A DNA stretch of 64,000 bases from Pseudomonadota bacterium (GTDB lineage Bacteria > Pseudomonadota > Gammaproteobacteria > JBCCGL01), in contig JBCCGL010000007.1 of assembly GCA_039029275.1 (NCBI GenBank), forward strand, positions 213,428 through 277,427, read 5' to 3'. Below, piece after piece: positions 1 to 43,490 of this stretch. Within the stretch, counting starts at the first letter, position 1. Every line of letters begins with the position of its first letter. The notes beneath the pieces were generated by a model. The model saw only the letters and a program-made list of their open reading frames with translations, had not been told where the DNA came from and ran no database searches. Both the position numbers and the translations under genes were made by a program.

Positions 1-1236
1 TGTGATGTAGTTAGCAAAATTTATCGATTGATTTATTGTTGCGATCTCGCTTGACTGCTGTCCCTGTGTCAGGCCTTCGCAGTCGGCAAATGTTGCGTTG
101 GAATCACCAGGCACCAGTTGATCCGAGTCGTTTCGAACCAAACAAAACTCGCCGAAGTGTACGTTCAGCGTCACTTCGACGAAGGCGCCGCTGGCGGTGA
201 GTTCGTCAATCAATGAACGCAATTTGAGTAGTTGTGCATCGTCGAGTGGGACTTCTGTGTAGTCGAATGTACTGGAGAGATTTAACGCCCATTCAATCGC
301 TGACAACCACGCGCTAACATCTGAAATCGTTTCAAACTGTCCCGTGCTTTCGCTAAGCTGCCGCTGCAAATCGTCGTTTTCGCGCTGCAACTGACTTAAC
401 AGTATCGAGTCACTGCTTGCCGCCTGATGGACTCTCGGGGGCGATTGAAATGCACTCACCAACACCCAGGTCAGGACAATCGCCGCGCAAACAGTAATCA
501 TCCAAATGAACGTTGAACTGTGACTGCCTCTTTCCCGCTCGTTTTGATTTTCGACCACATCTTTAAGATAAGAAAAGCTGGCCTCCAGAGCTTGTAGTCG
601 ATGGCTTAGCGACTTCAGGACTGTTCGATTGGCGGAGAGAACGTCCTGGCGCAGGTTAAGCCGCTGCTCCTCGAGCAAAGCGTCGAACTGATCCGCTCGA
701 AAATTGCTGCTTGCAGACGTATGGACCAGATCGGATGTCTCGCGCGCGAGGCGCTGAATTGTGCTGTCCGACAGATTAATTTTGACAGTGCGCGAAGATG
801 TGGTTTGTGGTTTCCTGGATTGCGATGGTTCGGGTTGTCGCGGAGTTTTTGCTGAATCGGGTGATTCGATCAGACTCAGGCGGGACAGGACGTTTTTAAG
901 TTGTGTTGGGCGGATGTCTTTGCCCAGTACGTCGACTGCACCCAGCGCACGCGCCTGCCCGACGTACACTTCTCCATCTTGCGAGGTATACATCACAATC
1001 GGAATCATAGCGGTGCTGGGATCTCGTTTGATTTGTTCGATCGCCTGGAGGCCGTCCATACCCGGCATGGTGTGATCCATGAAAATCACATCGGGAACGT
1101 GGCGGGATAAATAATCGAGCGCTTCTTCGGCCGAGCTCGCAGATTGCACGTCCAACGCGTGCTTCTCAAGCATTTTACTGAGAACAACACGGGCCGACTT
1201 CGAATCGTCTACAACCAGTGCTTGTTTGGCTGTCAT
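1..1236 (-). CDS. Response regulator: N-terminal CheY-like receiver domain, then one predicted TM helix and an uncharacterised C-terminal region. 3' partial, ORF runs off the window start
   Basis: Manual reverse-strand translation from ATG 1236..1234 gives MTAKQALVVDDSKSARVVLSKML...DHTMPGMDGLQAIEQIK (receiver motifs). No stop down to nt 1. Plus-strand ORFs 761..1110 are antisense artefacts. Confidence 0.75.
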   Translation of the reverse strand, partial: MTAKQALVVDDSKSARVVLSKMLEKHALDVQSASSAEEALDYLSRHVPDVIFMDHTMPGMDGLQAIEQIKRDPSTAMIPIVMYTSQDGEVYVGQARALGAVDVLGKDIRPTQLKNVLSRLSLIESPDSAKTPRQPEPSQSRKPQTTSSRTVKINLSDSTIQRLARETSDLVHTSASSNFRADQFDALLEEQRLNLRQDVLSANRTVLKSLSHRLQALEASFSYLKDVVENQNERERGSHSSTFIWMITVCAAIVLTWVLVSAFQSPPRVHQAASSDSILLSQLQRENDDLQRQLSESTGQFETISDVSAWLSAIEWALNLSSTFDYTEVPLDDAQLLKLRSLIDELTASGAFVEVTLNVHFGEFCLVRNDSDQLVPGDSNATFADCEGLTQGQQSSEIATINQSINFANYIT

Positions 1237-1331
1237 CACGTTCCGATGGTACCTCGTTACCCCACCCTGCGGGTTCAATTTACTGGATCAATCAGCCGCC
1301 GGTCTGCCGAATAAGGCAGCCGTGGCATCGC

Positions 1332-2234
1332 TTATAGAATAACCGTTACTTCAACCTGATTGCCACGTCCAATGTATTCAACGCTATCAAAACTCAGCTT
1401 ATTGGCCATGGCGATGCCCCTACCGTGGTTGTCATAAACCCGGTCGGTATTGAACTCCAGGTAATTCTCCCAATCAAAACCGGCGCCACAGTCGGAGATC
1501 TTGATTCGAATGGACTGTTTGTCCTTGTAGAAGTCCACCTCGACAAACTTATCCTTGTTTTCGATCTGTTCGAGTCTCCGGTTGACTTCATTTTGCCAGG
1601 TCCCCTTGGTGACCAGCTGTGTTTTGTCGTCATACATGATACCGAGGTTTCCGTGCTCGATGGCATTGATGAGCAGTTCTGACAGGCCTGACACCACGCG
1701 CTCGGGATCCGGAAAAGAATTAGCCAGAAAGCTGGACAAGTCCCGAGCTTCTTCAAGGCGCTGTAACGTGAAAAATCCCGAAGTCAGCATCGATACAACA
1801 TCGGCGCCCGAACGCACTTGATCCTGCAAGGCCTGAATTCTAGTGAAGTCGTCGATCGCTGCGGCAACAATCGACTTCAGAACCTCCTCGTCGAACGGTT
1901 TGGTCAGGTAGTAATACGCGCCACAGCGCAGGCCCTCGCTAATGTCCTGTTTGGAAGCAGCTGCTGTTTGCAAAATCACCGGAAGGTTGCGCAAATCGGC
2001 AGAATTTTTCATTCGAGTGAGCACTTGAATGCCATCCATCTCAGGCATCATTCTATCCAGCAGGACGGCACTGTATCGATTGGGTTCGAGCGCGAGAGCG
2101 TCCCATGCCTCTACCCCATTAGACGCAGTCACTAGCTCATACGGCATGTCTTCCAGATATTCGCTGATTATCTCAAGATTAAATTCTTCATCATCAACCA
2201 CGAGAAGTGTGATTTTCTGATCCATGTGATGCAT
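1332..2234 (-). CDS. Response regulator with receiver domain fused to a GHKL/HATPase_c (RsbW/SpoIIAB-like serine-kinase type) domain
   Basis: LLVVDDEEFN...LLDRMMPEMDGIQ receiver motifs. C-terminal ELLINAIEHGN (N-box) and ISDCGAGFD (G1 box). Confidence 0.75.
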   Translation of the reverse strand: MHHMDQKITLLVVDDEEFNLEIISEYLEDMPYELVTASNGVEAWDALALEPNRYSAVLLDRMMPEMDGIQVLTRMKNSADLRNLPVILQTAAASKQDISEGLRCGAYYYLTKPFDEEVLKSIVAAAIDDFTRIQALQDQVRSGADVVSMLTSGFFTLQRLEEARDLSSFLANSFPDPERVVSGLSELLINAIEHGNLGIMYDDKTQLVTKGTWQNEVNRRLEQIENKDKFVEVDFYKDKQSIRIKISDCGAGFDWENYLEFNTDRVYDNHGRGIAMANKLSFDSVEYIGRGNQVEVTVIL

Positions 2235-4854: not shown

Positions 4855-5310
4855 ATGTTGGAAGATGTATGGCGCCCCAACACAACGGTCGCGGCTGTAA
4901 TTGAGCGAGAGGGCCGTTTCCTTATGGTTGAGGAGATAAGTAACGGTAATCGCGTTATCAACCAGCCCGCCGGTCATCTTGAAGACGATGAGACTTTTCT
5001 GGAGGCGGTGCAACGTGAAGTGTTGGAGGAAACCGGTCACCCGTTTCACGCTGAGAGCTTGCTTGGCTGTTACCGATGGCGAAACGCTAACAACGGTTTG
5101 ACGTTCTTGCGACTCGCCTATATTGGTTATGTGGCGGACCCACTTCCGGATGCATCGATCGATGCAGATATTCTCGACGTCAAATGGATGAGCTACGACG
5201 AGATTCAATCCTTCGGCAGACTCCGCAGCCCACTCGTATTAAAATGCCTGGATGACTACCTCGCCGGCACTCGATATCCGCTCACTTTTGTTCAAGAAGT
5301 CCTGGGTTAG
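4855..5310 (+). CDS. NUDIX hydrolase
   Basis: 151 aa. Nudix box GHLEDDETFLEAVQREVLEETG. Confidence 0.75.
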   Translation: MLEDVWRPNTTVAAVIEREGRFLMVEEISNGNRVINQPAGHLEDDETFLEAVQREVLEETGHPFHAESLLGCYRWRNANNGLTFLRLAYIGYVADPLPDASIDADILDVKWMSYDEIQSFGRLRSPLVLKCLDDYLAGTRYPLTFVQEVLG

Positions 5311-5869
5311 GCTAGCGGCAAGCGCGTTTTCGCTTGCGATCGCGAGTTCGGTATCTGCAACCGAAAATCTATCAATCTGTACTAATTTCTCGTGCAAGGA
5401 GAAAGTGCTGGTTGAACTCGATCAATCACATTGGCAGAGGGTCCAGCGCCACTTTCTGCCCGCGCCGAAATCCCCGCTCAACGAACGCAATGCGATCGCG
5501 GCTGCAATCGCCGAGTTCGAGACAATTGCAGGCGAGATGAGTGTCATTGCGCTGGACAAGGGAGGCAATATCGACGGCATCGGACTGCCCGGGCAACTTG
5601 ACTGTATAGCAGAGTCAATCAATACGACTACGTTTTTGAACGCATTAGACGACAACGACCTGTTGAAGTGGCATACGGTTGGCGAGCATTCTTATCGGCG
5701 GCCAAGAATTTTCGACCAGCACTATGCGGCAACAATCACAATAATATCCGGTGCGCAATCGTGGGCCGTTGACAGCTGGCATCTGGACAACGGATTACAG
5801 CCCTATATTCAGCCGGTTGCCGACTGGTCGAGAAAAGTCACCCTCCCCTATAATCCGGATGCGGAATAG
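5252..5869 (+). CDS. Hypothetical secreted protein (Sec signal peptide KKSWVRLAASAFSLAIASSVSA|TE). Start uncertain: TTG at 5288 is plausible, and the ORF as called overlaps the NUDIX gene by 59 nt
   Basis: ORF with textbook n/h/c signal peptide. No recognisable domain. Confidence 0.45.
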   Translation: MTTSPALDIRSLLFKKSWVRLAASAFSLAIASSVSATENLSICTNFSCKEKVLVELDQSHWQRVQRHFLPAPKSPLNERNAIAAAIAEFETIAGEMSVIALDKGGNIDGIGLPGQLDCIAESINTTTFLNALDDNDLLKWHTVGEHSYRRPRIFDQHYAATITIISGAQSWAVDSWHLDNGLQPYIQPVADWSRKVTLPYNPDAE

Positions 5870-10101: not shown

Positions 10102-11028
10102 TTATCTGTCTGATTGATGGAGAAGCTTTATTTCATCCACAAATGTTCTCACTAAGTTACTTTGCTTCTTAGTCTTGTTTGTAATAAGAACAATCTGATT
10201 ACTAAAAAAATAGCGATCTGGATCGACCGCTTTCATAAAGCCCTGAGTCACCCAGGTCTCGGCGAAATGTTCAGGTAAATAGCCAACAAATTGCCCAGAC
10301 AAAATTAAGTGAGTTACACCTTCATCGTGAACTGTTGTTGCGGTGGTTTTGCAAGGAGGTTTGGCTCCATGAAACTCTAAGTCGCGTGTGTATCCGTGTC
10401 CGACCAGCTCCGCACTCTCGAGCAGTTTCGGGATTTGACCACTGTCACATTCAAACAAAGGATTTTCTGAGCCGCAGTACAGGTAGATATCTTCGGTATA
10501 TAGAAGTTCATAATGCAACCCTCTGAGAGGATACCTCCGAATGCCAATACCCACGCTGTACTCTCCGTTAAGCACCGATAGTTCAACATTCTCGGGAGAG
10601 CGAACATGAATATTAATCTGAAAATTCCCATCTTTGGATTTAATTCTGGATATCGCTTCCGATAAGCGAAATCTACGATCACTGATTAACATATCGATGG
10701 TTGAAATAGATAAGGTACCCGAAAGTCCAGATTTGGCGTCGGCCACGCTGGCGACAAATGACTCACATTGTTGAAAAAGTGCAATCGACGCCTCATAGAT
10801 GATCCTTCCTTGCTCGGTGATTTGAAATCCCGCGCGCCCGCGCCTGCAAAGCTGCATATTGAGTCGGCCCTCCAGATCGGCTAAATGGCTACTGATAGTC
10901 GAGCGGCCGATATTCAATCTTGTCTCAGCGGCTGACAGCCCCCCGCACTCGACGATTGCCACAAACACCCTCAAGAGACGCAAATCGACGTCCTGAACCT
11001 GCATTTCGATGGCTACTCCAGTTTCCAC
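10102..11028 (-). CDS. LysR-family transcriptional regulator
   Basis: N-terminal HTH LRLLRVFVAIVECGGLSAAETRLNIGRSTIS plus substrate-binding domain. Divergent from the IDO-like gene. Confidence 0.9.
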   Translation of the reverse strand: METGVAIEMQVQDVDLRLLRVFVAIVECGGLSAAETRLNIGRSTISSHLADLEGRLNMQLCRRGRAGFQITEQGRIIYEASIALFQQCESFVASVADAKSGLSGTLSISTIDMLISDRRFRLSEAISRIKSKDGNFQINIHVRSPENVELSVLNGEYSVGIGIRRYPLRGLHYELLYTEDIYLYCGSENPLFECDSGQIPKLLESAELVGHGYTRDLEFHGAKPPCKTTATTVHDEGVTHLILSGQFVGYLPEHFAETWVTQGFMKAVDPDRYFFSNQIVLITNKTKKQSNLVRTFVDEIKLLHQSDR

Positions 11029-11160
11029 CTATTGTTTGATCAAATCGGAACAAAGTCCAACTAATTTGTATTTTTCGGCAAAAAATTGAAGCGTAAGATT
11101 CCCCATCTAGAGTTGGCCCTTACGTATTACCGCTGAAAATCAGCATTAAAAATTCAACCA

Positions 11161-12318
11161 ATGAGTGGTTCTTCCATGCAACAAAGCTGCTGGAATCCGG
11201 TAAATGACACCGGGTTTCTGATGAGCCCAGATCCTGTATTCGACTTATCAATTGTCGGATCAGGCCTGCCCCTGCTCGTCAGCACAACGCTTGAACATAT
11301 TGCCGATTCGCTGCCCGAGTTGATTAAGTCCGGAAATCTTCGCAACGTAATTGATGAGCTTGAAGCATATGACGTATCTGCGTTGCGCAATATCAGGGAC
11401 TTTCGGGTTGTTGAACGCGCTTTTCAGATATATGCGCATCTCGCTAACGCATACGTGTGGTGCGACGAAGAAAACCCCAAACACCATATTCCTGAGGGTG
11501 TTGCTGTTCCGTTAGTTGAGTTATCAAAAATGGTTGAGCGGCCGCCGATTTTGCCCTACGCCGCGACATCATTGTGTAATTTTCGGCGTAGAGATCCGCA
11601 CGATGATTTGGTCGCCGATAACCTCGAGTGCATCATTAAGTTCGTTGACATACCCGATGAATCCTGGTTCCACCTCATTCACGTGGAGATTGAAGCTCAT
11701 GCAGCCAACGCGTTGAAGGCTTGTGTCGAAGCCACGAGCGCGATCTCGAGCGATGACGCTCAAATGGTTAAGTCTGAACTCGCCACAATACCAGAAGCCT
11801 TCGGCAAGATGATGGCAACGTTCAAACGCATGGACGAACACTGCAGTCCTGAGGTCTATTTCCATACTTCGCGCCCCTACCGTTTTGGTTTTGATGACGT
11901 GGTCTACAGGGGTGTAGAGGACTTTAACGGACGACCACAAACATTTTGTGGTGAAACTGGTGAACAAAGTACGGTGGTTCCCGCCTTGAAGGCCTTTTTA
12001 GGCCTGCAGAATGAACAGCATGGACTAAGCGAACCCCTGGAAGTCGTGAAGCCTTACATGCCCTCTCCTCACCGACAACTTTTGGCAGGCATTGATAGCC
12101 AGAAAATTCGCAAGTACGTCGTGAACCAAAAAAGCCAATCACTAAAACAAATATACAACAATTGCCTTGAAGGCTTGTTCGAATTCAGAAGCCTCCATTT
12201 TAATATGCTTAAGGGACATGTGGCGTGCAAGGTAAAAAATCCAATCGGTCGGGGTGGCACGGATTTTATGCACTGGTTACAAAATCTCAGAAACGAAACG
12301 GCCGCGCAATACATATAG
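11161..12318 (+). CDS. Indoleamine 2,3-dioxygenase (IDO) family heme dioxygenase
   Basis: GETGEQSTV (cf. GGSAGQSS), KPYMPSPHRQLL (cf. RRYMPPAHRNFL), FRSLHFNML (proximal His), GRGGTDFMHWL (cf. GTGGTDLMNFL). Exact start uncertain. Confidence 0.7.
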   Translation: MSGSSMQQSCWNPVNDTGFLMSPDPVFDLSIVGSGLPLLVSTTLEHIADSLPELIKSGNLRNVIDELEAYDVSALRNIRDFRVVERAFQIYAHLANAYVWCDEENPKHHIPEGVAVPLVELSKMVERPPILPYAATSLCNFRRRDPHDDLVADNLECIIKFVDIPDESWFHLIHVEIEAHAANALKACVEATSAISSDDAQMVKSELATIPEAFGKMMATFKRMDEHCSPEVYFHTSRPYRFGFDDVVYRGVEDFNGRPQTFCGETGEQSTVVPALKAFLGLQNEQHGLSEPLEVVKPYMPSPHRQLLAGIDSQKIRKYVVNQKSQSLKQIYNNCLEGLFEFRSLHFNMLKGHVACKVKNPIGRGGTDFMHWLQNLRNETAAQYI

Positions 12319-12345
12319 TGCTATCGAATAACAAAAGGAATACCC

Positions 12346-13236
12346 ATGAAGCCTAGAATGATGGCGCACGGCGGCGCTTGGGATTGGGACGACGCTTTAG
12401 ACTTTGGGAAGCATCAGGGGTTAAAAATCGCGATACGGGCCGGCCAGAATATCCTCGACAACGGCGGCAGTGCACTTGACGCAGTTGAGAAAACCGTAAT
12501 TGCGTTAGAAGATAATCCTGTGTTCGATGCGGGGACCGGCGGACACCTCAACGAGGACGGAATCGTACAACTCGATGCACTTATTGTTGACGGCTCTAGA
12601 CATGATTTTGGTGCAGTTGCGGGTGTAACCAGTGTAAAAAACCCGGTAGCACTGGCTCGAAAAATACTGGAAGAGACGAATCAAGTATTCTTTGTCGGGC
12701 ACGGTGCAAATCAACAAGCCGGAAAACTTGGAATATCCCCTGTTGCGAATGAAACGCTCGTCACCCCTGAGATGCGCGAATACTTTTATGATCGTAGAAC
12801 CGATGGACCAAGCGATACTGTCGGTGCCATTGCCATCGACAAAGATGGCAATGTGGCCGCCGCAGCATCAACGAGTGGTTCCCCTTACAAGCCAGCCGGA
12901 CGAGTTGGAGACGCTCCATTTTACGGAGCAGGTGGTTACGCTGAGAATTATATTGGGGCAGCAGGAGCGACAGGCCATGGGGAAATGATTGCACGCACAC
13001 TCTTGTCCAAACACGCATGCGATCAAATCAGCAACGGCGCTTGTGCGATGCATGCGGCTCAGAAATCAATCGAGTATTTTGAGTTGTTGAATGGAAAGTC
13101 TATGTCTGCTCTGATCGTAATTGACAAAGACGGCAATCTCGGTGCGAGTCAAACCGCACCCAAGATGGCATTTGGTTGGGTTGATCTAAACGGCAATATT
13201 CACACAGCAATGACGTCGAGCGAACTCAGAAAATAA
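12346..13236 (+). CDS. Isoaspartyl peptidase / L-asparaginase family Ntn-hydrolase
   Basis: 296 aa. DTVGAIAIDKDGN nucleophile-Thr motif, GAGGYAENYIGAAGATGHGE. Good SD AAGGA before ATG. Confidence 0.8.
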   Translation: MKPRMMAHGGAWDWDDALDFGKHQGLKIAIRAGQNILDNGGSALDAVEKTVIALEDNPVFDAGTGGHLNEDGIVQLDALIVDGSRHDFGAVAGVTSVKNPVALARKILEETNQVFFVGHGANQQAGKLGISPVANETLVTPEMREYFYDRRTDGPSDTVGAIAIDKDGNVAAAASTSGSPYKPAGRVGDAPFYGAGGYAENYIGAAGATGHGEMIARTLLSKHACDQISNGACAMHAAQKSIEYFELLNGKSMSALIVIDKDGNLGASQTAPKMAFGWVDLNGNIHTAMTSSELRK

Positions 13237-13302
13237 AATCTGACAATATCGAAAAATCTTGAATCCAGAACCAACATTGATCGGAACTGTTTCAGGTAAT
13301 TC

Positions 13303-16300
13303 TTAAGCAGCCTGTTCCTCCCCTTGAACGTTTCTTAAATGTCGGAGTAAATGTTTAACAACTGCATAGTTTTCGTCGTACGCTCTTTTTTTGACATAAC
13401 CATATCCACGAACCTTCGCTGCGCTACTCGCCAGCTCGACTGCTACGTCGTAGTTATCGGGCCGAGTTTCTCTCAACAAAATTCCCAGAAGTATTTCATA
13501 CTCATCGATGATGAGTCTTTCCAACTTTCGATCCTCGCTGTAGCCAAAAATATCGAACTTTGTTCCGCGCAGAAATCTTAACCCGGCCAGAATCTTAAAA
13601 ACCGGAATCATCCATTGGCCAAACTCCCGTTTGGACGGTAAGCCGTCTGGATTATTGGAAGCCAGTATAGGCGGAGCCAAGTTGAATTTGACTTGGTAGT
13701 CTCCTTCAAACTTATCGGAGAGATCCGACCAAAATTCATCGCTCGAATAAAGTCGTGCGACTTCGTACTCATCTTTGTACGCAAGTACATGTACATAAGT
13801 CCTGGCAACTTCCTTTGATAGTGCAAAATCAGTTCGGCCCAAAGCTTCATCGATCGACTCGAACGCGCGCACTTGATTAATGTAACGTTCGGCCAATGCT
13901 GTGTTTTGATACTGCTTGAGATGACTGGCGTACTGATCGAGTAAACCCTCAAGCGAATCTTCGCTTTTCTGAGCTGGTGCAGGATTTAGCTCGATAGTCG
14001 ATGGGAGCGACGAGGGTGAGTGACTTGCTAACCTGCCCCAGTTAAATGCAGCGATGTTTTTCTCAATTGCTACGCCATTCAGCTCGATGGCAGCTGTCAA
14101 GGATTCTGATTTTATTGGCACGTATCCTGACTGATACGCATAGCCCAGCAAAAACAGGTTTGCGAACACAGAATCTCCGAAGAGCCGCGTCGCGATATCG
14201 GTCGCATCGATGAATGTGCAATTGTCTGATCTAGTTGCCTTTCGAATAATGTTTTGCATTCGCATGGCGGGAAATTCAAGATCAGGTGTTTGTGTGAACG
14301 AAGACGGCATCGAACGGTAACTGTTTATCACGGCGTTAGTGTTTTGAGGGTCGGTTTTTGCCAAGGTATCAAAGCTGGACGCGACGATAAGGTCACCACC
14401 GATCACGACATTGGCTTCGCCCGCCGGAATGCGCACGGTATGAATGTCATTTTGAGAAACCGCGATACGAATATGACTGACCACTGCGCCGTATTTTTGC
14501 GCTAATCCCGCCATGTCCAGAACTGATATTCCTCTCTCCTCAATATGCGAGGCCATGCCGATGATCGCACCGATTGTGACGATACCTGTTCCTCCTACGC
14601 CTGTGACGACAATGTTGTACGGCATGTCAAGTGACGGTTTTATGGGTTCGGGCAGTGACTTGAATTCCGGGCTTTCCGTCATGGCCTGCTTCACTTTCAG
14701 TTTGCCGCCAACAACACTGACAAAACTCGGACAAAATCCTTTGTTGCACATAAAATCCTTATTACACGCGGACTGATCAATCGCGCGTTTGCGCCCAAAG
14801 GGTGTTTCAACCGGAATGATTGAAAGGCAATTTGATTTTTCTCCGCAATCACCGCATCCTTCACACACAGCCTTGTTGATAAACAAGCGTTTTTTCGGTT
14901 CTGGCATGAGGCCGCGTTTACGGCGTCGGCGCTTTTCTGTCGCGCAGGTTTGATCGTAGATGATGACCGAAACACCAGTGCTTTTACGCAGCGTGCGTTG
15001 CAAGGCATCAAGCTCGTCGCGATGATGCACCGTGACACCAGCGGCAAAATTTGCCTGGTGCGTGTACTTTTCAGGTTCGTCGCTGACCACCTTTAGCATG
15101 CGAACACCCTCGCCATATAGCTGATGAGTGATTTGCTCGACACTCAGTTGTCCGTCGATAGGCTGTCCGCCTGTCATTGCGACCGCGTCGTTGTAGAGCA
15201 ACTTGTAAGTCACATTCACGTCTGCAGCGACTGCTGCGCGAATCGCAAGCAAGCCGGAATGAAAGTACGTGCCATCTCCCAGATTCACAAATACATGTTC
15301 AGTTTCAGTAAAAGGAGATTGACCAATCCAGGCAACGCCCTCGCCGCCCATTTGTGAAAACGTTTCGGTTCGGCGATCCATCCAGATCGCCATATAGTGG
15401 CAGCCAATTCCGGCTAGTGCGCGGCTGCCTTCAGGCACTTTGGTGGATGTGTTATGCGGGCAACCCGAACAAAAATGAGGGACCCGCGCAATGGGTGACA
15501 CCGCCTGTTCCAACGCTTTTTCTTTCTCTTCAAGAAATGACAGACGTTCCTTCACCGCGTCACTGTCATAAAAAGGTTTTATTCGGCGAGCGATAACCCG
15601 TGCGACTTGTGCAGGCGTTAATTCACCGGTTGAAGGCAAAATCCATTCACCTGCCTCGTCAAATTTACCGACCACACGCGGCCTGACTTCCTCACGCCAG
15701 TTGTAGAGCTGTTCCTTAAGCTGGTTTTCGATAACTGCGCGCTTTTCTTCAACCACAATAATTTCTTCAAGACCTTCGGCGAACTCGCGAATTCCCTCTC
15801 GCTCAAGCGGCCAACTCATCCCTACTTTTAAAACCCGCAAGCCGATTTGTTGTGCGGTTTGTTTGTCGATGTGCAAATCGTCAAGTGCCTGCATCACGTC
15901 GAGATAGGACTTGCCGGTACTGACAATGCCAACGCGTGGCTTTTCGCTGTCGAGCGTAATGCGATTAAGCGTGTTGGCGCGCGCAAATGCCAATGCGGCG
16001 TACACCTTGTATTGCTGCAGGCGACGCTCCTGCACCAGCGGGGGATCGGGCCAACGTGCGTGCAAGCCGCCCGCGGGCATGTCGAAGTCCTGAGGCATGA
16101 CGATTGAGACCCGACTGGGGTCCAGGTCGGCAGAAATTGACGAATCGACAGTTTCGGCAATCGTTTTGAATCCAACCCAGCAACCGCTGAACCGCGACAA
16201 GGCCCAACCGATGAGTCCGAAATCCAGTATTTCCTGAACGCCAGATGGGTTAAGTACAGGCATTTGTGCGTCCATAAACGCGTATTCGCTTTGATGCGCC

Positions 16301-16761
16301 AGCGTTGAGGATTTGCAGGTATGGTCGTCCCCGGCAATTGCCAGGACACCTCCGAATTGGGATGTTCCTGCAGAATTGGCGTGTTTAAACACGTCGCCAC
16401 TGCGATCTACCCCGGGCCCTTTGCCGTACCACATTCCGAAAACACCGTCGTAATTAGCGCCATCGAACAGGTTAACTTGCTGCGAGCCCCATACTGCAGT
16501 TGCACCGAGGTCTTCGTTAACGCCGGGCTGAAAGTGTATATGGTGTTCTTTGAGGTAATCGCGCGCTTTCCACAGCGCCATGTCAAAACCGCCCAACGGC
16601 GATCCGCGATAACCTGATATAAACGCTGCGGTGTTCAATCCTGCCGCTAAATCGCGCTGGCGCTGCAGCATGGGGAGTTTGACCAACGCCTGGGTGCCGG
16701 TCAGATAGGCTCGGCCGGTATTAAGCGTGTATTTATCGTCGAGGGCTACTGATCGATTCAT
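13303..16761 (-). CDS. Indolepyruvate:ferredoxin oxidoreductase family protein (fused alpha/beta, 1152 aa)
   Basis: Characteristic N-terminus MNRSVALDDKYTLNTGRAYLTGTQALVKLPMLQR. TPP and 4Fe-4S Cys-motif regions (CEGCGDCGEKSNC). Confidence 0.9.
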   Translation of the reverse strand: MNRSVALDDKYTLNTGRAYLTGTQALVKLPMLQRQRDLAAGLNTAAFISGYRGSPLGGFDMALWKARDYLKEHHIHFQPGVNEDLGATAVWGSQQVNLFDGANYDGVFGMWYGKGPGVDRSGDVFKHANSAGTSQFGGVLAIAGDDHTCKSSTLAHQSEYAFMDAQMPVLNPSGVQEILDFGLIGWALSRFSGCWVGFKTIAETVDSSISADLDPSRVSIVMPQDFDMPAGGLHARWPDPPLVQERRLQQYKVYAALAFARANTLNRITLDSEKPRVGIVSTGKSYLDVMQALDDLHIDKQTAQQIGLRVLKVGMSWPLEREGIREFAEGLEEIIVVEEKRAVIENQLKEQLYNWREEVRPRVVGKFDEAGEWILPSTGELTPAQVARVIARRIKPFYDSDAVKERLSFLEEKEKALEQAVSPIARVPHFCSGCPHNTSTKVPEGSRALAGIGCHYMAIWMDRRTETFSQMGGEGVAWIGQSPFTETEHVFVNLGDGTYFHSGLLAIRAAVAADVNVTYKLLYNDAVAMTGGQPIDGQLSVEQITHQLYGEGVRMLKVVSDEPEKYTHQANFAAGVTVHHRDELDALQRTLRKSTGVSVIIYDQTCATEKRRRRKRGLMPEPKKRLFINKAVCEGCGDCGEKSNCLSIIPVETPFGRKRAIDQSACNKDFMCNKGFCPSFVSVVGGKLKVKQAMTESPEFKSLPEPIKPSLDMPYNIVVTGVGGTGIVTIGAIIGMASHIEERGISVLDMAGLAQKYGAVVSHIRIAVSQNDIHTVRIPAGEANVVIGGDLIVASSFDTLAKTDPQNTNAVINSYRSMPSSFTQTPDLEFPAMRMQNIIRKATRSDNCTFIDATDIATRLFGDSVFANLFLLGYAYQSGYVPIKSESLTAAIELNGVAIEKNIAAFNWGRLASHSPSSLPSTIELNPAPAQKSEDSLEGLLDQYASHLKQYQNTALAERYINQVRAFESIDEALGRTDFALSKEVARTYVHVLAYKDEYEVARLYSSDEFWSDLSDKFEGDYQVKFNLAPPILASNNPDGLPSKREFGQWMIPVFKILAGLRFLRGTKFDIFGYSEDRKLERLIIDEYEILLGILLRETRPDNYDVAVELASSAAKVRGYGYVKKRAYDENYAVVKHLLRHLRNVQGEEQAA

Positions 16762-17001: not shown

Positions 17002-17751
17002 TTGAGGATCGTGAGTTGGAACATTCGAGCCGGTGGCGGCAAAAGGATCGGGTGCATTCTTGACAACTTGATACGGTGGCAACCCGATGTAATCTGCCTT
17101 AATGAATTCCGTGGCACGCCGCCCAGTTTGGACTTGGCCTGCGCGCTCGTCAGCTGCGGGTTTCCTTTTCAACGTAACACGGTAAACGCATCAGATAAGG
17201 CCAAAAACGCGTTGTTGATTGCCAGTGCGATTCCGATTAAACGAACGTGGCGCAAAGGCATGCCAGATAACGCCGAACGATGGTTATCAATTCGGCTTAA
17301 CCGAGTGCTCCCGATTTTCCTGGGTATCATGCACATCCCGAATTACACGCACCCACATTTGAAGTATCCGTTCATGCAGGCGGTGCTGGAGTTACAAAAA
17401 CGCTGGCGTTCCAGCCCGGCAATTTTTCTTGGTGATACCAACTGTGGCAAACGTGGAATTGACGAAGAACAATATTCCTCAGTTTTGTTTCGTCGGGAAC
17501 ACGACTGGATGGAGAACATCGAATCGAATCGTTGGGTAGATATTTATCGGCATTTTCACGGTAGTCGTCGTGAATTCACGTGGTACTCCCATCGCAACAA
17601 TGGTTTTCGATTGGATCACGCGTTCTGCAATCAAAAAATGTTACCGGCCGTTTGTTCCATACGCTATGAGTGGGGGCATGACCCCACGCAAGCAAAAAGG
17701 CGCGACGCGGTAAGCGACCACGCCGCGATGATTATCGACCTCGATAGCTGA
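17002..17751 (+). CDS. Endonuclease/exonuclease/phosphatase (EEP, ExoIII/DNase I-like) family protein. TTG start
   Basis: RIVSWNIRAGG, LNEFRG, C-terminal SDHAAMIIDL. Confidence 0.75.
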   Translation: MRIVSWNIRAGGGKRIGCILDNLIRWQPDVICLNEFRGTPPSLDLACALVSCGFPFQRNTVNASDKAKNALLIASAIPIKRTWRKGMPDNAERWLSIRLNRVLPIFLGIMHIPNYTHPHLKYPFMQAVLELQKRWRSSPAIFLGDTNCGKRGIDEEQYSSVLFRREHDWMENIESNRWVDIYRHFHGSRREFTWYSHRNNGFRLDHAFCNQKMLPAVCSIRYEWGHDPTQAKRRDAVSDHAAMIIDLDS

Positions 17752-17776
17752 TATCGATTTCCAGAGAGAAAAACTT

Positions 17777-19048
17777 TTATTTTTCAGCGTTAACCACGTC
17801 GTGAATCAAGCTTTCACTCTGGCGAAGGCGAGTATTCATTTTCTTGAGAAGTGACCAAAACAACTTCATTCCGAGGTCCGGATACCGCCTCAACAACGCG
17901 AATAGTTCCGGCCGCTTCAAAACAAGCATTACTGCGTTACTTGTGGTTGTCACGGTGGCCGATCGGGGAGCCTTATCGATCAGTCCCATTTCACCGAAGT
18001 GCCCTCCCGCTTTTAAATTAGCGACCAGTTTTCCGTTTACCGACACCTCGGCTTCACCGCCGAGAAGTACATACATATCATCGCCTTCCTCGCCTTCGCG
18101 CACCACGACTTCGTTGTTCGCGTATTTGGTAACACGGATAACTTGGAGTAGCAGAGAAATTTGATTGAAGTCGAGATTCTGAAACAAAGGGACACGCTTT
18201 AAAACATTGATCTTTTTAGTAGCGGTAACGTCCGGCGCAGGTGATGCGGTTTCATCTTCGCCGACCTGAACAACAACTGCTGTAATGTTGTCTTTACCGC
18301 CTCGCGCGTTGGCGAATTTAATCAGCTTTTCGGGTAAATCCGCAACATCAGTGCGTGTGCTAAAAGTATGCAAATCATCTTTGGAGGTATAGTCGCTTAA
18401 GCCGTCCGAACAAATAATGAAGCGATCATTGATTTCTGTATCCAGAAATCGGACCTCGGCTTCGACATACTCCTGTACACCCACAGCGCGGGTGATGACG
18501 TTAGCGTTTGGATGATTCTCGGCGTCTTCGCGTGACAAAACGCCCTTCTGCACCAATGTATTAACCAGCGAATGATCCTCGGTGACCTGATGAACTTCGT
18601 TTTTTCGGTGTAGATAAATTCGGCTGTCCCCAACGTGTGCGATAAACGCACCGTGCCTGCAAACCAGTACCAGCACAATGGTTGTGCCCATTCCGTGCCG
18701 GGTCTGATCCTCTTGTGCAAGCTGAAAGACTTTTCGATTGGCATATTCAATCGCGTCCTCAAGCAGAGCGGTGACCTGTTCCCTGTTCGCTTTCTGTGGC
18801 GTTTGATTAAACGTTGACAGACTGTCACTGGAAGCCTGAATACGTTCGACGACCGCTTTGGCCGTTGCTTCGGAGGCGACTTCACCCGCGGCATGACCGC
18901 CCATGCCGTCGCAAACAACGAACAGGCCGATGGTTTCATCGACTAGCAAAAAATCTTCGTTGTGATCGCGTTGAATGCCAACATCCGTTTTACCGGAATG
19001 CTTCACCGTGGGTGCAGACGCGACATTAATTTCAACAGTCTCTTGCAT
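17777..19048 (-). CDS. PP2C-family Ser/Thr phosphatase fused to a C-terminal cyclic-nucleotide-binding (CAP_ED) domain
   Basis: FVVCDGMGGHAAGEVAS metal-binding motif, DGLSD. C-terminal GEMGLIDKAPRSATV cNMP-binding signature. Confidence 0.8.
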   Translation of the reverse strand: MQETVEINVASAPTVKHSGKTDVGIQRDHNEDFLLVDETIGLFVVCDGMGGHAAGEVASEATAKAVVERIQASSDSLSTFNQTPQKANREQVTALLEDAIEYANRKVFQLAQEDQTRHGMGTTIVLVLVCRHGAFIAHVGDSRIYLHRKNEVHQVTEDHSLVNTLVQKGVLSREDAENHPNANVITRAVGVQEYVEAEVRFLDTEINDRFIICSDGLSDYTSKDDLHTFSTRTDVADLPEKLIKFANARGGKDNITAVVVQVGEDETASPAPDVTATKKINVLKRVPLFQNLDFNQISLLLQVIRVTKYANNEVVVREGEEGDDMYVLLGGEAEVSVNGKLVANLKAGGHFGEMGLIDKAPRSATVTTTSNAVMLVLKRPELFALLRRYPDLGMKLFWSLLKKMNTRLRQSESLIHDVVNAEK

Positions 19049-19099
19049 AAACTTGCCCTATGGGTCCGAAACATTGGATTCGGGAAGCAAAATACACTG

Positions 19100-19118
19100 A
19101 GATCAAGGAGCTTGATCT
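19100..19118 (-). promoter_or_regulatory. Perfect 8-bp inverted repeat AGATCAAG-gag-CTTGATCT in the 5' region of the PP2C-CAP_ED gene. Candidate operator
   Basis: Read directly, about 52-70 nt upstream of start codon 19048. Confidence 0.3.
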
Positions 19119-19389
19119 AACCTTCCGCCGTTAGCTAGCCCCTTTTCATTCTGTTTTTGATCATATCAGGGTCCTCCGCTTTCGAATACCGCAAAAATCT
19201 GTCTCCCGATTTGTTCGGCGGCCAAATCGCGACAATGAACTTGGTAATCGACATCCAATCAATCATTGTGGCTGAGATTTGCCTTTGTACCGTTGTCGCT
19301 ACGCGCTGTATCGATGTGCAGGGGTATGTCGGACACAGGCTCTCTGTGCGTAGTGAACTTCGATATAAGTTGTCGGAAACTTTCTGTTT

Positions 19390-20334
19390 TCACTTTGCGA
19401 TTGGCTTGTGATGGCGAGATGCGCGCCAATAAGAAGGAGCTTCGCCAAACTTCGCCTGGAAAGCCCGACTAAACGCTTCTTTTGAAGCATAACCAACACG
19501 ATCAGCAATCGATTCGATTGGCGTACTTGAATGCAAAAGAGCCTCAGCGGCTTGATCCAATCGCCATGCACGCAGGTAGGCACCCGGTTTTTGCCCCATA
19601 ACCTGTTTAAAGCGTTCTGCAAAATTGGAGACAGACATCCCTGCAATATTTGCGAGTTCCGCATTCGTCAGATTTTGTAACGGCTCAGCGTGAATAGCCG
19701 AAACGGCTCGGGCGATACGTTTATCTTTTGCGGCAGCCAGCCAGCCAGGAAGGCTGTCTTCGGATTGGGCCCACCGTCGAAGTATGATGACAAGCAGAAG
19801 ATCGAGGAGGCGCGAAACCATTAGACTTGCACCGGGTCGGGTTGCGCCCAACTCTCCGAGCACGAGTTCACAGACGGTATCAACCCACTCAATCGGATGG
19901 TCATCAAGTCCTGTGAGAACGATGATTTGAGGCAGCGATCGCAATATTCCGGCGGCGAGGTTGCCGTCGACTGAAAAACTCCCCCAGAAACAATTCAGTG
20001 ACGATTCAGGGCTTGCGTTGGGTGAATCAAAATCTGGATAACTGAATCTGGCTTGATGCTGAGTCCCCTGAAGCATCAGGGCAATTTGTTTTTGCTTAAG
20101 AATGACCGGAGATTCAGAATCAATCTGGATTTCAAGTACGCCTTGTTCGACAACATACACACAAGGCTTTCCATGGGGAACTGAATAATCAAGCGGCCCC
20201 TGCGAGGTAATCACACGTGCACTTTCACCGCGCACGTGCACGATATCAAGCACTTCTGAAAAGGCATCCGTTCCAAATATCGGTGTTTCCGCTAACACTT
20301 CCGGCGTCTTCGTCATCGGCAAGTGAGTTCTCAA
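19390..20334 (-). CDS. AraC-family transcriptional regulator (cupin + HTH)
   Basis: C-terminal AraC HTH signature. Confidence 0.85.
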   Translation of the reverse strand: MRTHLPMTKTPEVLAETPIFGTDAFSEVLDIVHVRGESARVITSQGPLDYSVPHGKPCVYVVEQGVLEIQIDSESPVILKQKQIALMLQGTQHQARFSYPDFDSPNASPESSLNCFWGSFSVDGNLAAGILRSLPQIIVLTGLDDHPIEWVDTVCELVLGELGATRPGASLMVSRLLDLLLVIILRRWAQSEDSLPGWLAAAKDKRIARAVSAIHAEPLQNLTNAELANIAGMSVSNFAERFKQVMGQKPGAYLRAWRLDQAAEALLHSSTPIESIADRVGYASKEAFSRAFQAKFGEAPSYWRASRHHKPIAK

Positions 20335-20380
20335 TTTTTAAAATTCGGACCATGCTAATCCAACTACGAGGTACTTCAAA

Positions 20381-21145
20381 ATGATTAATTTTCGTAATGC
20401 TTTTCGCGCGGCGATGGCTGCTGTCGCCATAATTATCTCAATGAACGCGACAGCTAAAGATGCATCGGTTGTGCTTGTTCATGGCGCATTTTCGGACGGA
20501 TCCGCGTGGCACAAAGTGATTCCGATATTGCAGCATGCTGGAATTTCAGTGAATGCTGCCCAGTTGCCAATGTCATCACTCAAGGAGGATGCTTCCGTTG
20601 TGCCGCGCCTGATCGAACTTCAGGAAGGACCCGTCATACTGGTCGGGCATTCCTACGGTGGAAATGTAATTACAGAATCTGGCGCCAACGACAACGTCAG
20701 AGCGTTGGTCTACGTTGCTGGATTCGCTCTGGATGCGGGACAAGCAATGAAGGATTTGCTGAAAGATAAACCACCAGCACCTTGGCAAGCGGAAGCTAAG
20801 GCAGATTCACAGGGGTATGTGCGGCTCACTGAGGCAGGCATAAAAACGTTTTTCGCTCCTGATTTATCCGCAGAGGAAACGGCCCTGGTTTCGGCAACGC
20901 AAGGTCCGATCCAACGTAAGATCAATTACGAAGCGCCTACGGTCGCGGCTTGGAACATGCACCCAACGTTCTATGTTTTAACTGAAAACGACCAAATAAT
21001 TCCGCCTGAATTACAGGGTTTCTTCGCAACGCGAATGGGCGCTCAAATCACACCAGTAGCGTCGAGTCACGTTGCGATGTTGTCGCAGCCGGAGGCCGTT
21101 GCACAAGTGATATTGAAAGCTGTTGAAGCAGCTTTGTCTCGTTAA
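20381..21145 (+). CDS. Secreted alpha/beta-hydrolase (esterase, SABP2/methylesterase-like)
   Basis: Signal peptide, VLVHGAFSDGSAW, GHSYGG nucleophile elbow. Confidence 0.8.
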   Translation: MINFRNAFRAAMAAVAIIISMNATAKDASVVLVHGAFSDGSAWHKVIPILQHAGISVNAAQLPMSSLKEDASVVPRLIELQEGPVILVGHSYGGNVITESGANDNVRALVYVAGFALDAGQAMKDLLKDKPPAPWQAEAKADSQGYVRLTEAGIKTFFAPDLSAEETALVSATQGPIQRKINYEAPTVAAWNMHPTFYVLTENDQIIPPELQGFFATRMGAQITPVASSHVAMLSQPEAVAQVILKAVEAALSR

Positions 21146-21207
21146 GTTATCTACGAAACCCGCCCAAAGTAAATAATTTTTTAACCATTGATTTCAGGAG
21201 TACTTTA

Positions 21208-21570
21208 ATGACTTTTTGGATTCTTGCAGCTCTCTGCCTGTATTTTGTTCAAACCCTTTTACCAGTAACGTTTAGGTATCGCGGCAGTCCAGCGTCGATG
21301 GGAACTCGCGATACCATGCCCGAGGCTACAGATCTGGTTCGACGGGCTGAGCGCGCACTCATCAACGTTGGGGAGGCGATGCTCGTGTTTCTACCACTCG
21401 CTCTTCTAACTCTCGACTCTGAACCGGCAGAGTTAGGTGCGAGCATCTTTTTCTTTGCGCGGGTCGCGCATGTGATTTTGTACCTCGCTGGAGTGTCGTA
21501 CGTTCGAACTGTGGTATGGGTAATTAGCCTCGCAGGCCTGGTCATGATGGCGACCCACGTTGCGGTGTAA
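21208..21570 (+). CDS. MAPEG-family membrane protein
   Basis: 120 aa, three to four predicted TM helices, MAPEG-like. Confidence 0.7.
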   Translation: MTFWILAALCLYFVQTLLPVTFRYRGSPASMGTRDTMPEATDLVRRAERALINVGEAMLVFLPLALLTLDSEPAELGASIFFFARVAHVILYLAGVSYVRTVVWVISLAGLVMMATHVAV

Positions 21571-22202
21571 ACCCTTACTTTTCAACCATTAGTGTGAATC
21601 CGTGCCGTCAATTGATCCCTACAAGGAGATGAATCAAAACAGTATTCACTAAGGACTAAACACGCAAGCTCTTAGCGCGTTGTAAATGGCATTAGTGTTA
21701 AAAACGTCAGATGGGTATAGTTGAAAGCGCGTGACCCGTGACGCATGAAACCTACTTATTTGCTATACGGAAACCATCAAATATTTACACGATTGAATGC
21801 GTGTGTTTAACCTAGACAGACGAAGTACATTGATCGGATTTGGAAAAAAAAGACCGGAGTGAAAGGAACTGACCTCGGATCATCTATGCCCATATGCGTG
21901 GTAAAACGAAAACATGCCACAGGAACGATCGGAGCAGATCGATTACCTGTGCTACAAAATTCTCATTTATACAAAATCAAACACCAACGCTTTGCTTGGC
22001 TAGTTTGGAAAATAGCAATTCACTATATTGCCAATGTAAAAATCTTTTTGCGAGCCTCGCGGATTTTGCGCGCTACTCAGGCAAGAATTTAAAAAGTGGG
22101 CAATAGTAGCGGCGATCGTTCCCGCAATAGTCCTTTGCGGGTTGTCACTAGATAACATTCTACTTGAATAAAGAATTTTAATTTATTGTTTTATTGAGGG
22201 AA

Positions 22203-22280
<78 letters not shown>

Positions 22281-39579: not shown

Positions 39580-40341
39580 TTACGCCTCGTACTTTCGAAT
39601 ACCAAGTTTTTGCATCGTAGCAAAGCAGATAAACATAGGCACGATTGTGAAGTAGCGCTTCCACAACCGGCGAGGTTCTGTAATAAGTCGAAACAACCAC
39701 TCCAAGCCAGAACGTCGCAAAAACTTCGGCGCCTGACGGGTTCGACCCGCGTGAAAATCAAATGCTGCCCCCACTCCAACGAGCACCGGTGCGTGTAATT
39801 TGGCTCGATGTTCGGCCATCCATCGCTCCTGCTTTGGCGTGCTCAATCCGACCCAAACAATATCGGCTTCAGACGCATTAATTTGATTGGCAATTTCTTC
39901 GCTCTCCTGATCGGTGAGTGCACGAAACGGCGGTGATATGGCGCCTACAATCTGGATTTTGGGAAAACGCCGTTTTAGATTTGCCTGCAGCGCTGCCAGA
40001 GACTCCTCTGATGCCCCATAGAGAAAGTGGCGATATCCGTGGTCGTGCCCGTGATTGATCACTTCGAGCATGAGGTCAGGACCGTATACGCGGTCAGCCT
40101 GTTTGTGGCCTTCGCTGCGCATAAACCAAACCAATGGCATACCATCAGGAGTAACCAGGCCAGCATGATTGTGGATTTGCTTCAGCGCATCGTCAAACTG
40201 GCTTTCAATTATGCCGTGTACCGACGTCACACAAACGTACCGAGCAACCCGTTTGCCAATCCACGAGTGAATGGTGCCGACTGCTTCTGGCATATTGGTC
40301 GCACTTTGTCGTACGCCAAGAATATTGCAACGTTCAACCAT
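39580..40341 (-). CDS. WecB/TagA/CpsF-family glycosyltransferase (start taken at MVERCNILG)
   Basis: LLYGASEE, RFPKIQIVG, IVWVGLSTPKQE. Confidence 0.8.
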   Translation of the reverse strand: MVERCNILGVRQSATNMPEAVGTIHSWIGKRVARYVCVTSVHGIIESQFDDALKQIHNHAGLVTPDGMPLVWFMRSEGHKQADRVYGPDLMLEVINHGHDHGYRHFLYGASEESLAALQANLKRRFPKIQIVGAISPPFRALTDQESEEIANQINASEADIVWVGLSTPKQERWMAEHRAKLHAPVLVGVGAAFDFHAGRTRQAPKFLRRSGLEWLFRLITEPRRLWKRYFTIVPMFICFATMQKLGIRKYEA

Positions 40342-41620
40342 TCTGGTATTGCCCCGGGGTGCTTTGGTTTGTTGTGTTTCGCTGCCCCGACTTACGCCGA
40401 TCAGCGAGCAGCACAACAAGGTCAGCTTGATCTTCGGCTAACCTTTCAGACGCTGCGACCAACGCCAGTATTAATAAAAATGTCGTGGGGTTTGGGATAA
40501 TCAGTACCGGATTAAATAGTCCGCCAATAACACCCGAAACGAGCATTCCCATCAAAAAGGCATCCTTCGATTTGATAGCAATGATCAATGCGTAGAAAAG
40601 GATGATCAGCATCAATCCCAGTCCGATAATGCCAGTTGTTAATGCCGCTTCCACGTAACTGTTGTGGGCATGTCCAGCGAACGCAAAATGCTCTAAAAGA
40701 AAATATCGACTGGAAAAATATCCGACACCGAAAAAAGGGCTGTCTGATATAAATTCACTGGATTTTATCCATAGTGGAACTCGATTGTTTAAAGTCCAAA
40801 AGTCACGCGGCAAATTCTCGATGATGTCACCTGACAATAGGAAAACGACGAAAACCAACACGCATGCGACTGTGCAAAACCACAGTGCTACTCGCGTAGT
40901 GATTCCGCCAGAAAAATACATCACAACTGCTACAACGAGGGGGCACATCCCGATGAGGTTACGTCCGTGGGTCAAGAGAAGTATGTAGAAAAACACACCA
41001 CCGAGTATTAATTTGAGTGCAATGGGTGCACGTAATACGGTAGTAATAATTATTGCAATCAACATCAGCTCACCGGTTTCAAGAGGGTGAGAATAGCCGA
41101 GGTAAAAGCGACCTGGGCGACCGCTCCATTCGGATGCCTCGGTAAATCTAAACGGCGATCCTCCTTCTATCGCAAAGTTGGCGAATATCAATGCCACCAC
41201 CGCCGCAAAGACGCCTAACGCAATTACACGCAGAAAGCTGTTGGAGTCCAAAATGTCGAGCCCCTTCATGTAAACCACAAGCGCAACTGCGATGAAGTAA
41301 CATAGAATGAGCTCACCTCCTTTGCCGAACGACAATACGGGGTTTGTCGACCATAAAAATGTGAGCATCGCCCAGACGGCATACGCCAGTACTACAAACC
41401 ATCCTGCCGACTTAATCGCAACATAGCACTGGTTCACTATGATCGCTATGACGATAATTCCGGATGCGGCCAACAAAAGTCCGATTTCAATCACACGACT
41501 AATGCTGGACTCGCTGGTCATTACATTGCCAGTTTCCACAACGGGCATAAAAGCCATCACAACCAGAAAAATGATACAGGCAGGCAGATACAGGGTTGAC
41601 ATGTGGCCAGGACGATTCAC
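40334..41620 (-). CDS. O-antigen ligase / Wzy-like polytopic membrane protein
   Basis: 428 aa, 10 or more TM helices, Wzy_C-like loop. Confidence 0.7.
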   Translation of the reverse strand: MNRPGHMSTLYLPACIIFLVVMAFMPVVETGNVMTSESSISRVIEIGLLLAASGIIVIAIIVNQCYVAIKSAGWFVVLAYAVWAMLTFLWSTNPVLSFGKGGELILCYFIAVALVVYMKGLDILDSNSFLRVIALGVFAAVVALIFANFAIEGGSPFRFTEASEWSGRPGRFYLGYSHPLETGELMLIAIIITTVLRAPIALKLILGGVFFYILLLTHGRNLIGMCPLVVAVVMYFSGGITTRVALWFCTVACVLVFVVFLLSGDIIENLPRDFWTLNNRVPLWIKSSEFISDSPFFGVGYFSSRYFLLEHFAFAGHAHNSYVEAALTTGIIGLGLMLIILFYALIIAIKSKDAFLMGMLVSGVIGGLFNPVLIIPNPTTFLLILALVAASERLAEDQADLVVLLADRRKSGQRNTTNQSTPGQYQNG

Positions 41621-41622
41621 TG

Positions 41623-43463: not shown

Positions 43464-43490
43464 TGAGCGGCCCGGTTTTCGATCTAAGTC

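Follow-up and report, generated by a model that had tools for sequence, protein, structure and literature searches.

A PP2C phosphatase fused to a cyclic-nucleotide-binding domain, and its likely kinase partner, in a small gammaproteobacterial clade

What does a Ser/Thr phosphatase that carries its own cyclic-nucleotide-binding (CNB) domain do in a gammaproteobacterial genome, and with which partners does it act? The question is raised by a gene at positions 17777-19048 of a 64,000-nucleotide stretch of DNA (hereafter the window; contig JBCCGL010000007.1, positions 213,428 to 277,427, assembly GCA_039029275.1, labeled Pseudomonadota bacterium). An earlier note on this DNA had described the product as a PP2C phosphatase with predicted cyclic-nucleotide gating and an architecture rare in gammaproteobacteria, and had grouped it with a convergent EEP-fold gene and a distant REC-GHKL gene as what resembled parts of a partner-switching circuit. 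The present analysis places it differently. The PP2C-CNB protein is read here as a soluble phosphatase of the Stp1/IreP type that is probably set by a cyclic mononucleotide, appears to be encoded as a single-gene unit, and likely opposes the CNB-like Hanks kinase MEM7210106.1, a reading to which a probability of about 0.7 is assigned.

Domain architecture of the phosphatase

The gene and the parts of its product are as follows.

17777-19048, minus strand: PP2C-CNB phosphatase gene, an open reading frame (ORF) of 423 amino acids (aa) whose protein is NCBI MEM7208417.1 (identical protein P0001)
18266-18991, minus strand: PP2C (PPM) catalytic domain of the Stp1/IreP type, residues 20-261, assigned from NF033484 and the invariant motifs
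17792-18223, minus strand: CNB domain with a long C-terminal helix, residues 276-419, assigned from PF00027, the PKA-R and PKG matches, and the structural model
17951-17998, minus strand: phosphate-binding cassette FGEMGLIDKAPRSATV, spanning residues 351-366 and evident from the sequence itself

The NCBIfam Stp1/IreP PP2C model NF033484 matched residues 20-261 over its full length (profile positions 1-232 of 232) with 250.5 bits, above its equivalog cut-off of 230, and PF13672 and PF00481 likewise exceeded their own cut-offs. The metal- and phosphate-binding motifs RxxNED, DGMGG, GDSR, SDG, and DN were all present in the 423-aa protein. Moreover, R27, N30, E31, D32, D47-G51, G140-D141, R143, S214-G216 (with D215), and D253-N254 were invariant in an alignment (A1) of 38 PP2C-CNB members, although overall these share no more than 40-50% identity with the query. 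For the C-terminal part, the Pfam model cNMP_binding (PF00027) matched residues 307-389 with 64.9 bits (cut-off 27.5). The fusion of PP2C with a C-terminal CNB domain was thus confirmed, both NF033484 and PF00027 lying above their curated cut-offs, and the gene is predicted to encode an intact Ser/Thr protein phosphatase fused to a cyclic-nucleotide sensor.

Structural comparison agreed with this assignment. An AlphaFold2 model built on the 38-member alignment had a mean pLDDT of 89.1 and a pTM of 0.85, with both domains confident, and the closest solved structures for the PP2C domain were Stp1 (2pk0), tPphA (2j82), and PstP (1txo). When aligned by structure, the catalytic domain is 29-38% identical to the Stp1/IreP/PstP/tPphA phosphatases, the TM-scores (normalized to the target) being 0.85-0.92, and all motifs are retained. 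The protein differs from Stp1, PstP, and tPphA, however, in its C-terminal CNB domain, present in no solved PP2C, in having no PstP-type membrane anchor, and in that no kinase gene lies next to it in the window. A search of the PDB returned no single solved structure with both domains, its matches covering either PP2C or CNB alone.

The cyclic-nucleotide-binding domain and its probable ligand

The CNB region matched the CNB domains of PKA-R and PKG with E-values of 1e-20 to 1e-34 and was farther by sequence from CRP (1e-8). In the AlphaFold2 model, the beta-barrel strands span residues 304-378 and are followed by helices at 379-388 and 390-419, the latter a 30-residue C-terminal helix that carries the invariant residues K395, W398, and R409. 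Within the cassette, which has the form Gly-Glu...Arg-Ser-Ala, G352, E353, R362, and A364 were invariant in the 38-member alignment. The Arg and Glu on which the proposed gating depends are therefore intact, with Gly-Glu and Arg-(Ser/Thr)-Ala kept in all 38 members, and the control of dephosphorylation by a cyclic nucleotide, as the earlier note had proposed, is accordingly a reasonable prediction. An invariant cassette in a family only 40-50% identical is what would be expected as a signature of selection for cyclic-phosphate binding.

The Arg-Ser-Ala form of the cassette resembles that of the cyclic AMP (cAMP) binders CAP and MloK1, a likeness that does not decide the ligand. Because of this CAP/MloK1-like form, cAMP is favored by analogy as the most likely ligand of the domain.

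Family distribution and origin

A search of 5.8 billion proteins revealed that the architecture is shared by all of the best 120 clusters at 90% identity, each a PP2C plus cNMP_binding protein of about 430 aa, and the named sources among them were Halobacteriovoraceae, Bacteriovoracaceae, Bdellovibrionota, and Myxococcota. In addition, a filter-free search of the 1.84 billion representatives of 50%-identity clusters showed that about 140 of the best 150 representatives match residues of about 18-412 as one stretch, with an E-value still at 4e-76 at rank 150. Also present were three giant proteins of 2,600-3,800 aa (P0362, P0364, and P0366) with 12-16 tandem CNB-matching stretches, which rank high purely by the number of their repeats. 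In a 2025 survey of bacterial PP2Cs, cNMP_binding is one of the eight accessory domains met most often (PMC12088040). The PP2C-CNB proteins are a large family, already catalogued and biochemically unstudied, with hundreds of diverged members centered in Bdellovibrionota and Myxococcota.

Only two close relatives of the window phosphatase were found (P0002 and P0003, 71% and 68% identical, respectively), both from metagenome-assembled genomes (MAGs) labeled Pseudomonadota bacterium, and the next matches, at 50% identity, belong to Bdellovibrionota. Pseudomonadota account for 3 of the best 120 matches, all from the same small clade, and no gammaproteobacterial full-length match occurred among the GTDB loci returned. 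The architecture thus looks uncommon in Gammaproteobacteria, whereas it is not rare overall.

The window itself has the gene orders thrS-infC-rplT-pheST-ihfA and comEC-exbBD-msbA-lpxK-kdsB, which we take to be gammaproteobacterial. In a crude neighbor-joining tree, the three Pseudomonadota sequences nest among those of the Bdellovibrionota type, and horizontal acquisition is therefore reasonable: the small gammaproteobacterial clade probably gained its PP2C-CNB gene from outside. Clustering of the flanking ORFs revealed no universally conserved neighbor of the family, and only subclade-level synteny within Polyangiales-type genomes. Elsewhere, PP2C-CNB genes stand in diverse contexts, with genes for Tex, ABC-F, seryl-tRNA synthetase, REC, or acetyltransferase proteins around them. 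At one of these loci (L091 5567-7302), a stand-alone REC gene abuts the start of the PP2C-CNB gene of a Bdellovibrionota-type relative (P0009), which hints at a phosphorelay input in that lineage.

Kinase pairing in relatives and in this genome

The locus of the 68%-identical orthologue (L002) provides a candidate partner. There, the phosphatase gene comes directly behind pheT-ihfA-merR-tRNA-Pro(GGG), a landmark that the window shares. The gene that follows it in the same orientation, with a gap of 87 nt (L002 4357-5790), encodes a 477-aa protein with an N-terminal cNMP_binding match and a Hanks kinase (Pkinase) domain. The orthologue precedes a Hanks kinase gene just as in Stp/Stk pairs, classical examples of which were recovered in L053, L068, and other loci. 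In a second relative, GCA_039029075.1, the 71%-identical phosphatase gene (L001) runs into a contig end, and a kinase 71% identical to that of L002 begins another contig (L085), about 75 nt from its end. The end of L001 was compared with the beginning of L085 for an overlap that would prove adjacency, and none was found; the order of genes at the two contig ends nevertheless makes it probable that phosphatase and kinase are adjacent in this genome as well.

In the window, the Hanks kinase gene that adjoins the L002 phosphatase on the same strand is missing, its place is occupied by the EEP gene, and three extra genes lie between the tRNA and the phosphatase gene. A tblastn search of the window with the kinase of the L002 orthologue gave nothing better than E = 1.2. 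The possibility that a kinase gene once followed the phosphatase gene and left a trace on its deletion was considered and rejected, the tblastn hits there being chance matches on the wrong strand. The tRNA-Pro(GGG) gene (22203-22279) borders a variable block, of which the window part (19390-22279) holds MAPEG, alpha/beta-hydrolase, and Cupin_6/AraC genes, whereas in L002 the phosphatase follows the tRNA directly.

A kinase of the same kind was identified on another contig. This protein (P0127, MEM7210106.1) has 463 aa with a CNB-like and a kinase domain, shows the motifs VAIK, HRD, DFG, and APE, and is encoded on a 115-kb contig (L084 10001-11392). It shares with the window phosphatase the sequencing run (SRR22824298), the NCBI submission, and the organism label, and its accession number follows MEM7208417.1 by 1,689. 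Furthermore, the tetranucleotide correlation of the kinase contig with the window was 0.948, compared with 0.94-0.96 within the window and 0.82 for L002. The evidence that this genome has a cognate kinase, unlinked to the phosphatase and located on a different contig, is good, though not conclusive. The earlier statement that no cognate cyclase, kinase, or STAS partner is in view stands for the window, where the scanned ORFs of at least 150 aa (pheS, pheT, and thrS excepted) had no domain of the cyclase, Hanks kinase, FHA, or STAS type, but it does not extend to the genome, in which this candidate kinase probably occurs.

The CNB-like kinase belongs to a family of about 464 aa that is abundant in marine Gammaproteobacteria MAGs (P0121-P0240). 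Around one member, in the Gammaproteobacteria MAG CP070646.1 (L086 1900-4567 and 19901-21104), the CNB-like kinase gene has another Hanks kinase gene and a gene for a class III nucleotide cyclase (Guanylate_cyc) within 8 kb, and an Apyc1-like metallo-beta-lactamase-fold protein (anti-Pycsar family) is encoded about 8.5 kb downstream.

Sequence elements around the phosphatase gene

Three elements were considered upstream and downstream of the gene.

19160-19189, minus strand: conserved 30-nt block GTATTCGAAAGCGGAGGACCCTGATATGAT with an extended -10-like TGATATGAT, a candidate promoter or operator
17701-17727, minus strand: terminator-like hairpin of 11 pairs, 8 of them G-C, followed by CCTTTTTGCT, from a consensus scan; 50 nt past the phosphatase stop and inside the 3' end of the EEP gene
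19100-19118, no strand: perfect 8-bp palindrome AGATCAAG-GAG-CTTGATCT with a 3-nt loop, exact and probably without function

The 30-nt block, with the pattern GTATTCGA-N6-A-N2-A-N-CCTGATATGAT, is the sole conserved stretch in the otherwise unalignable upstream DNA of the three orthologues, and lies at 2790-2819 in L001 and at 2836-2865 in L002. The exact pattern was found only in L001, L002, and the window (L003), where it is unique even with 3 mismatches (0 expected). No such block was found upstream of the unlinked kinase gene (L084), again with 3 mismatches allowed. The hairpin as a terminator of the phosphatase gene is suggestive only, and terminator-like sites are not enriched in the region overall (6 found versus 3.6 expected). 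The conserved upstream block and the downstream terminator-like hairpin together suggest that the gene is monocistronic, a single-gene transcription unit with its own conserved control element.

The palindrome in the 5' region, to which the earlier note had drawn attention, has exact 8-bp arms as described. As an operator or RNA element it was rejected and is probably a product of chance: the window has 22 perfect 8-bp inverted repeats with loops of 0-10 nt, this one included, about 11 being expected under uniform base composition; the palindrome has no conserved counterpart upstream of the two orthologues; it takes no part in the structure when the putative leader is folded to minimum free energy (z-score -1.1); and an Rfam scan found nothing but three tRNAs.

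Proposed mechanism and comparison with plant PKG

In the proposed mechanism, a cyclic mononucleotide would bind the C-terminal CNB domain of the cytoplasmic PP2C, and binding would reposition the lid helix relative to the catalytic domain or its flap and thereby modulate activity. The phosphatase would reverse the phospho-Ser/Thr marks of a Hanks kinase, for which the CNB-like kinase is the most plausible candidate. We infer the direction of regulation from plant PKG, by analogy with which the phosphatase may be inhibited when the nucleotide binds. The rice enzyme is reported to combine a cGMP-dependent kinase and a cGMP-inhibited phosphatase in one chain with the order PP2C, CNB, CNB, kinase (PMC11775391). 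A CNB domain fused to an enzymatic output is also found in Bdellovibrio Bd1971, a cAMP-sensing EAL phosphodiesterase with a regulatory CNB domain (PMC6717892), in phyla where PP2C-CNB proteins are commonest, and this example shows cAMP sensing by a CNB-enzyme fusion from the donor-like phylum; Bd1971 differs in its output and in the order of its domains, with an N-terminal sensor and an EAL output.

Several points weigh against the reading of a nucleotide-set phosphatase that opposes the CNB-like kinase. A literature search found no binding or activity data for any bacterial PP2C-CNB member, only surveys and plant work. The window scans revealed no cyclase, and around the related loci a single-sequence phmmer search with a class III cyclase, which is of low sensitivity, found none either. 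The kinase contig is assigned to this genome by accession order, shared sample, and base composition rather than by a closed assembly. In addition, where the phosphate-clamping Arg would be expected, the CNB-like domain of the kinase carries Tyr in 117 of 120 family members, with Gly-Glu kept; this pocket is apparently non-canonical and may bind another ligand or none, and the idea of one messenger for both enzymes is therefore weakened. Finally, in 37 more distant family loci, no Hanks kinase adjoins a full-length family gene and kinases are only sporadic within 10 kb, so that the pairing seems to be clade-specific rather than a property of the whole family.

A more far-reaching extension of this reading is that phosphatase and CNB-like kinase form a two-gene bacterial counterpart of plant PKG, in which the nucleotide would reciprocally set both enzymes on shared substrates, the Arg-to-Tyr exchange would give them differing specificities or thresholds, and the split pair would work in trans. 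When the adjacent genes of L002 are read together, PP2C-CNB and then CNB-like-kinase, the domain order is indeed that of plant PKG (rice OsPKG and Arabidopsis PP2C19/At2g20050). Unlike the plant enzyme, however, the bacterial system consists of two polypeptides, encoded by unlinked genes in this genome, and the CNB-like domain of its kinase is without the cassette Arg; the 423-aa protein has PP2C and one CNB only, not the four domains of the plant-type chain. The extension is regarded as doubtful.

Alternative explanations and neighboring genes

Somewhat less likely still is that the CNB domain is a ligand-independent structural or dimerization module, or that, like some domains of the CRP/FNR family, it recognizes a ligand other than a nucleotide, leaving a constitutive Stp1-like phosphatase. 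This would fit the fact that no cyclase is visible in 64 kb, and the long conserved helix 390-419 could be a dimerization helix; the partner kinase family, moreover, has clearly drifted from the canonical pocket. The full cassette is nevertheless invariant across the 40-50%-identical family, and the missing cyclase concerns the window alone, a small part of the genome. The reading of a cyclic-mononucleotide-set phosphatase is thus preferred over that of a ligand-independent one.

Whether the gene next to the phosphatase belongs to the same system bears on the two remaining alternatives.

17002-17751, plus strand: EEP-fold gene, a divergent ExoIII-like nuclease/phosphatase of 249 aa (MEM7208416.1), assigned from PF03372

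The EEP and PP2C genes are convergent and separated by 25 nt (17752-17776), so that the tail-to-tail arrangement reported before is correct by coordinates. The EEP protein matched the Pfam model Exo_endo_phos (PF03372) with 4.5e-14, a superfamily-level model only, and remained below both exonuclease III equivalog cut-offs (61.0 versus 99.05 for TIGR00633 xth and 53.1 versus 182.55 for TIGR00195). Its nearest solved relatives are ExoIII of the Mth212 type (3g91/3fzi; E = 8e-10, residues 1-213), and it shares with ExoIII/Mth212-type AP endonucleases the EEP fold and the catalytic-looking motifs NEF, GDTN, and SDH. It differs from them by its scores below the xth cut-offs and by belonging to a family of its own of about 250 aa in Chloroflexota and Gammaproteobacteria MAGs, where homologues are 50-59% identical (the nearest 59%).

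The co-occurrence of EEP and PP2C genes across genomes, which would be expected of linked functions, was not observed. The ORFs of 83 loci, 33 of them with a full-length PP2C-CNB member, were all searched by phmmer with the EEP protein of the window, and only the window's own copy was returned. Three of four further PP2C-CNB contexts were without any EEP, and the fourth has a 387-aa EEP protein 2.4 kb away with no detectable sequence similarity. Conversely, an EEP homologue in one other genome adjoins Cas3-HD and Fe-ADH genes, with no PP2C. The pairing is thus unique to the window, with no EEP homologue in 37 related loci (33 + 4), and the EEP gene is, as far as gene neighborhoods tell, an unrelated chance neighbor with no functional link to the phosphatase.

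The CNB domain could also be imagined to sense cCMP or cUMP made upon infection, with the phosphatase (perhaps together with the EEP nuclease) executing a Pycsar-like or other anti-phage response, a role that is very improbable. The CNB region does match the CNB part of the PADLOC model PycTIR with 73.7 bits (3.9e-21), the PP2C domain weakly matches the candidate defense model PDC-M21C (46 bits), and the gene sits in a variable block beside tRNA-Pro. The PycTIR match, however, covers the generic CNB domain only, which PKA-R and PKG match equally well; the neighborhood has neither a Pycsar cyclase nor a TIR or membrane effector, and PADLOC gave no match for the EEP or the other neighbors. Family members, moreover, stand in diverse housekeeping contexts (Tex, ABC-F, and seryl-tRNA synthetase), and the orthologues pair with a Hanks kinase instead.

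Least probable of all is the grouping of phosphatase, EEP, and distant REC-GHKL protein as scattered parts of an RsbU/RsbV/RsbW-like partner-switching circuit with nucleotide and phosphorelay inputs: a REC plus HATPase_c_2 protein (RsbW-like ATPase fold) does exist at 1332-2234, the only HATPase_c_2 protein noted in the window, and the PP2C fold is common to the RsbU/SpoIIE phosphatases, but the phosphatase passes the Stp1/IreP equivalog model with no SpoIIE/PF07228 match at E <= 0.01, no STAS protein is apparent among the window ORFs of at least 80 aa (those of at least 150 aa scanned, those of 80-149 aa read by eye), the REC-GHKL gene lies 15.5 kb away beyond uvrB, mnmA, hflD, and other housekeeping genes with its own second REC protein behind it in a separate REC-REC cluster, and EEP is absent from every related PP2C-CNB locus. 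The circuit proposed earlier was therefore abandoned. Among the non-overlapping ORFs of 80-149 aa, those recognizable by eye were rplT, exbD, ihfA, merR, and MAPEG. The second REC-domain protein, encoded on the minus strand behind the 1332-2234 gene, has more than 429 aa and a hydrophobic segment and runs off the window start; the two REC genes (1-2234, minus strand) form a separate signaling pair.

Other features of the window

Beyond these genes, a bacterial indoleamine 2,3-dioxygenase (IDO, 11161-12318) lies at 10102-16761 beside Asparaginase_2, a LysR regulator, and a 1152-aa indolepyruvate:ferredoxin-oxidoreductase-like protein (POR/TPP/DUF6537), a group that may be a tryptophan or indole catabolic cluster. 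A large surface-polysaccharide cluster at 39580-52878 encodes WecG/TagA, group 1 and 2 glycosyltransferases, Wzy_C, a C-methyltransferase, a DUF4910/M28-like protein, aminotransferases, epimerases, and a Bac_transf initiating transferase. Two ORFs that may be genes, at 5252-5869 (205 aa) and 60202-60957 (251 aa), had no Pfam match at E <= 1e-3.

Implications

For genome annotation, the PP2C-CNB gene is best kept apart from both the EEP gene that converges on it and the distant REC-GHKL gene. The modestly interesting part of the locus is the pairing of the phosphatase with a CNB-like Hanks kinase in the sister genomes and their separation here, which resembles a split plant PKG. If the two-gene counterpart were real and the bacterial pair were the source of the plant fusion, the origin of the unusual plant PKG architecture would be explained. 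Cyclic-nucleotide control of bacterial Ser/Thr phosphorylation is poorly documented, and the small gammaproteobacterial clade offers a simple kinase/phosphatase pair in which to ask whether a second messenger sets the balance between the two activities, as reported for plant PKG.

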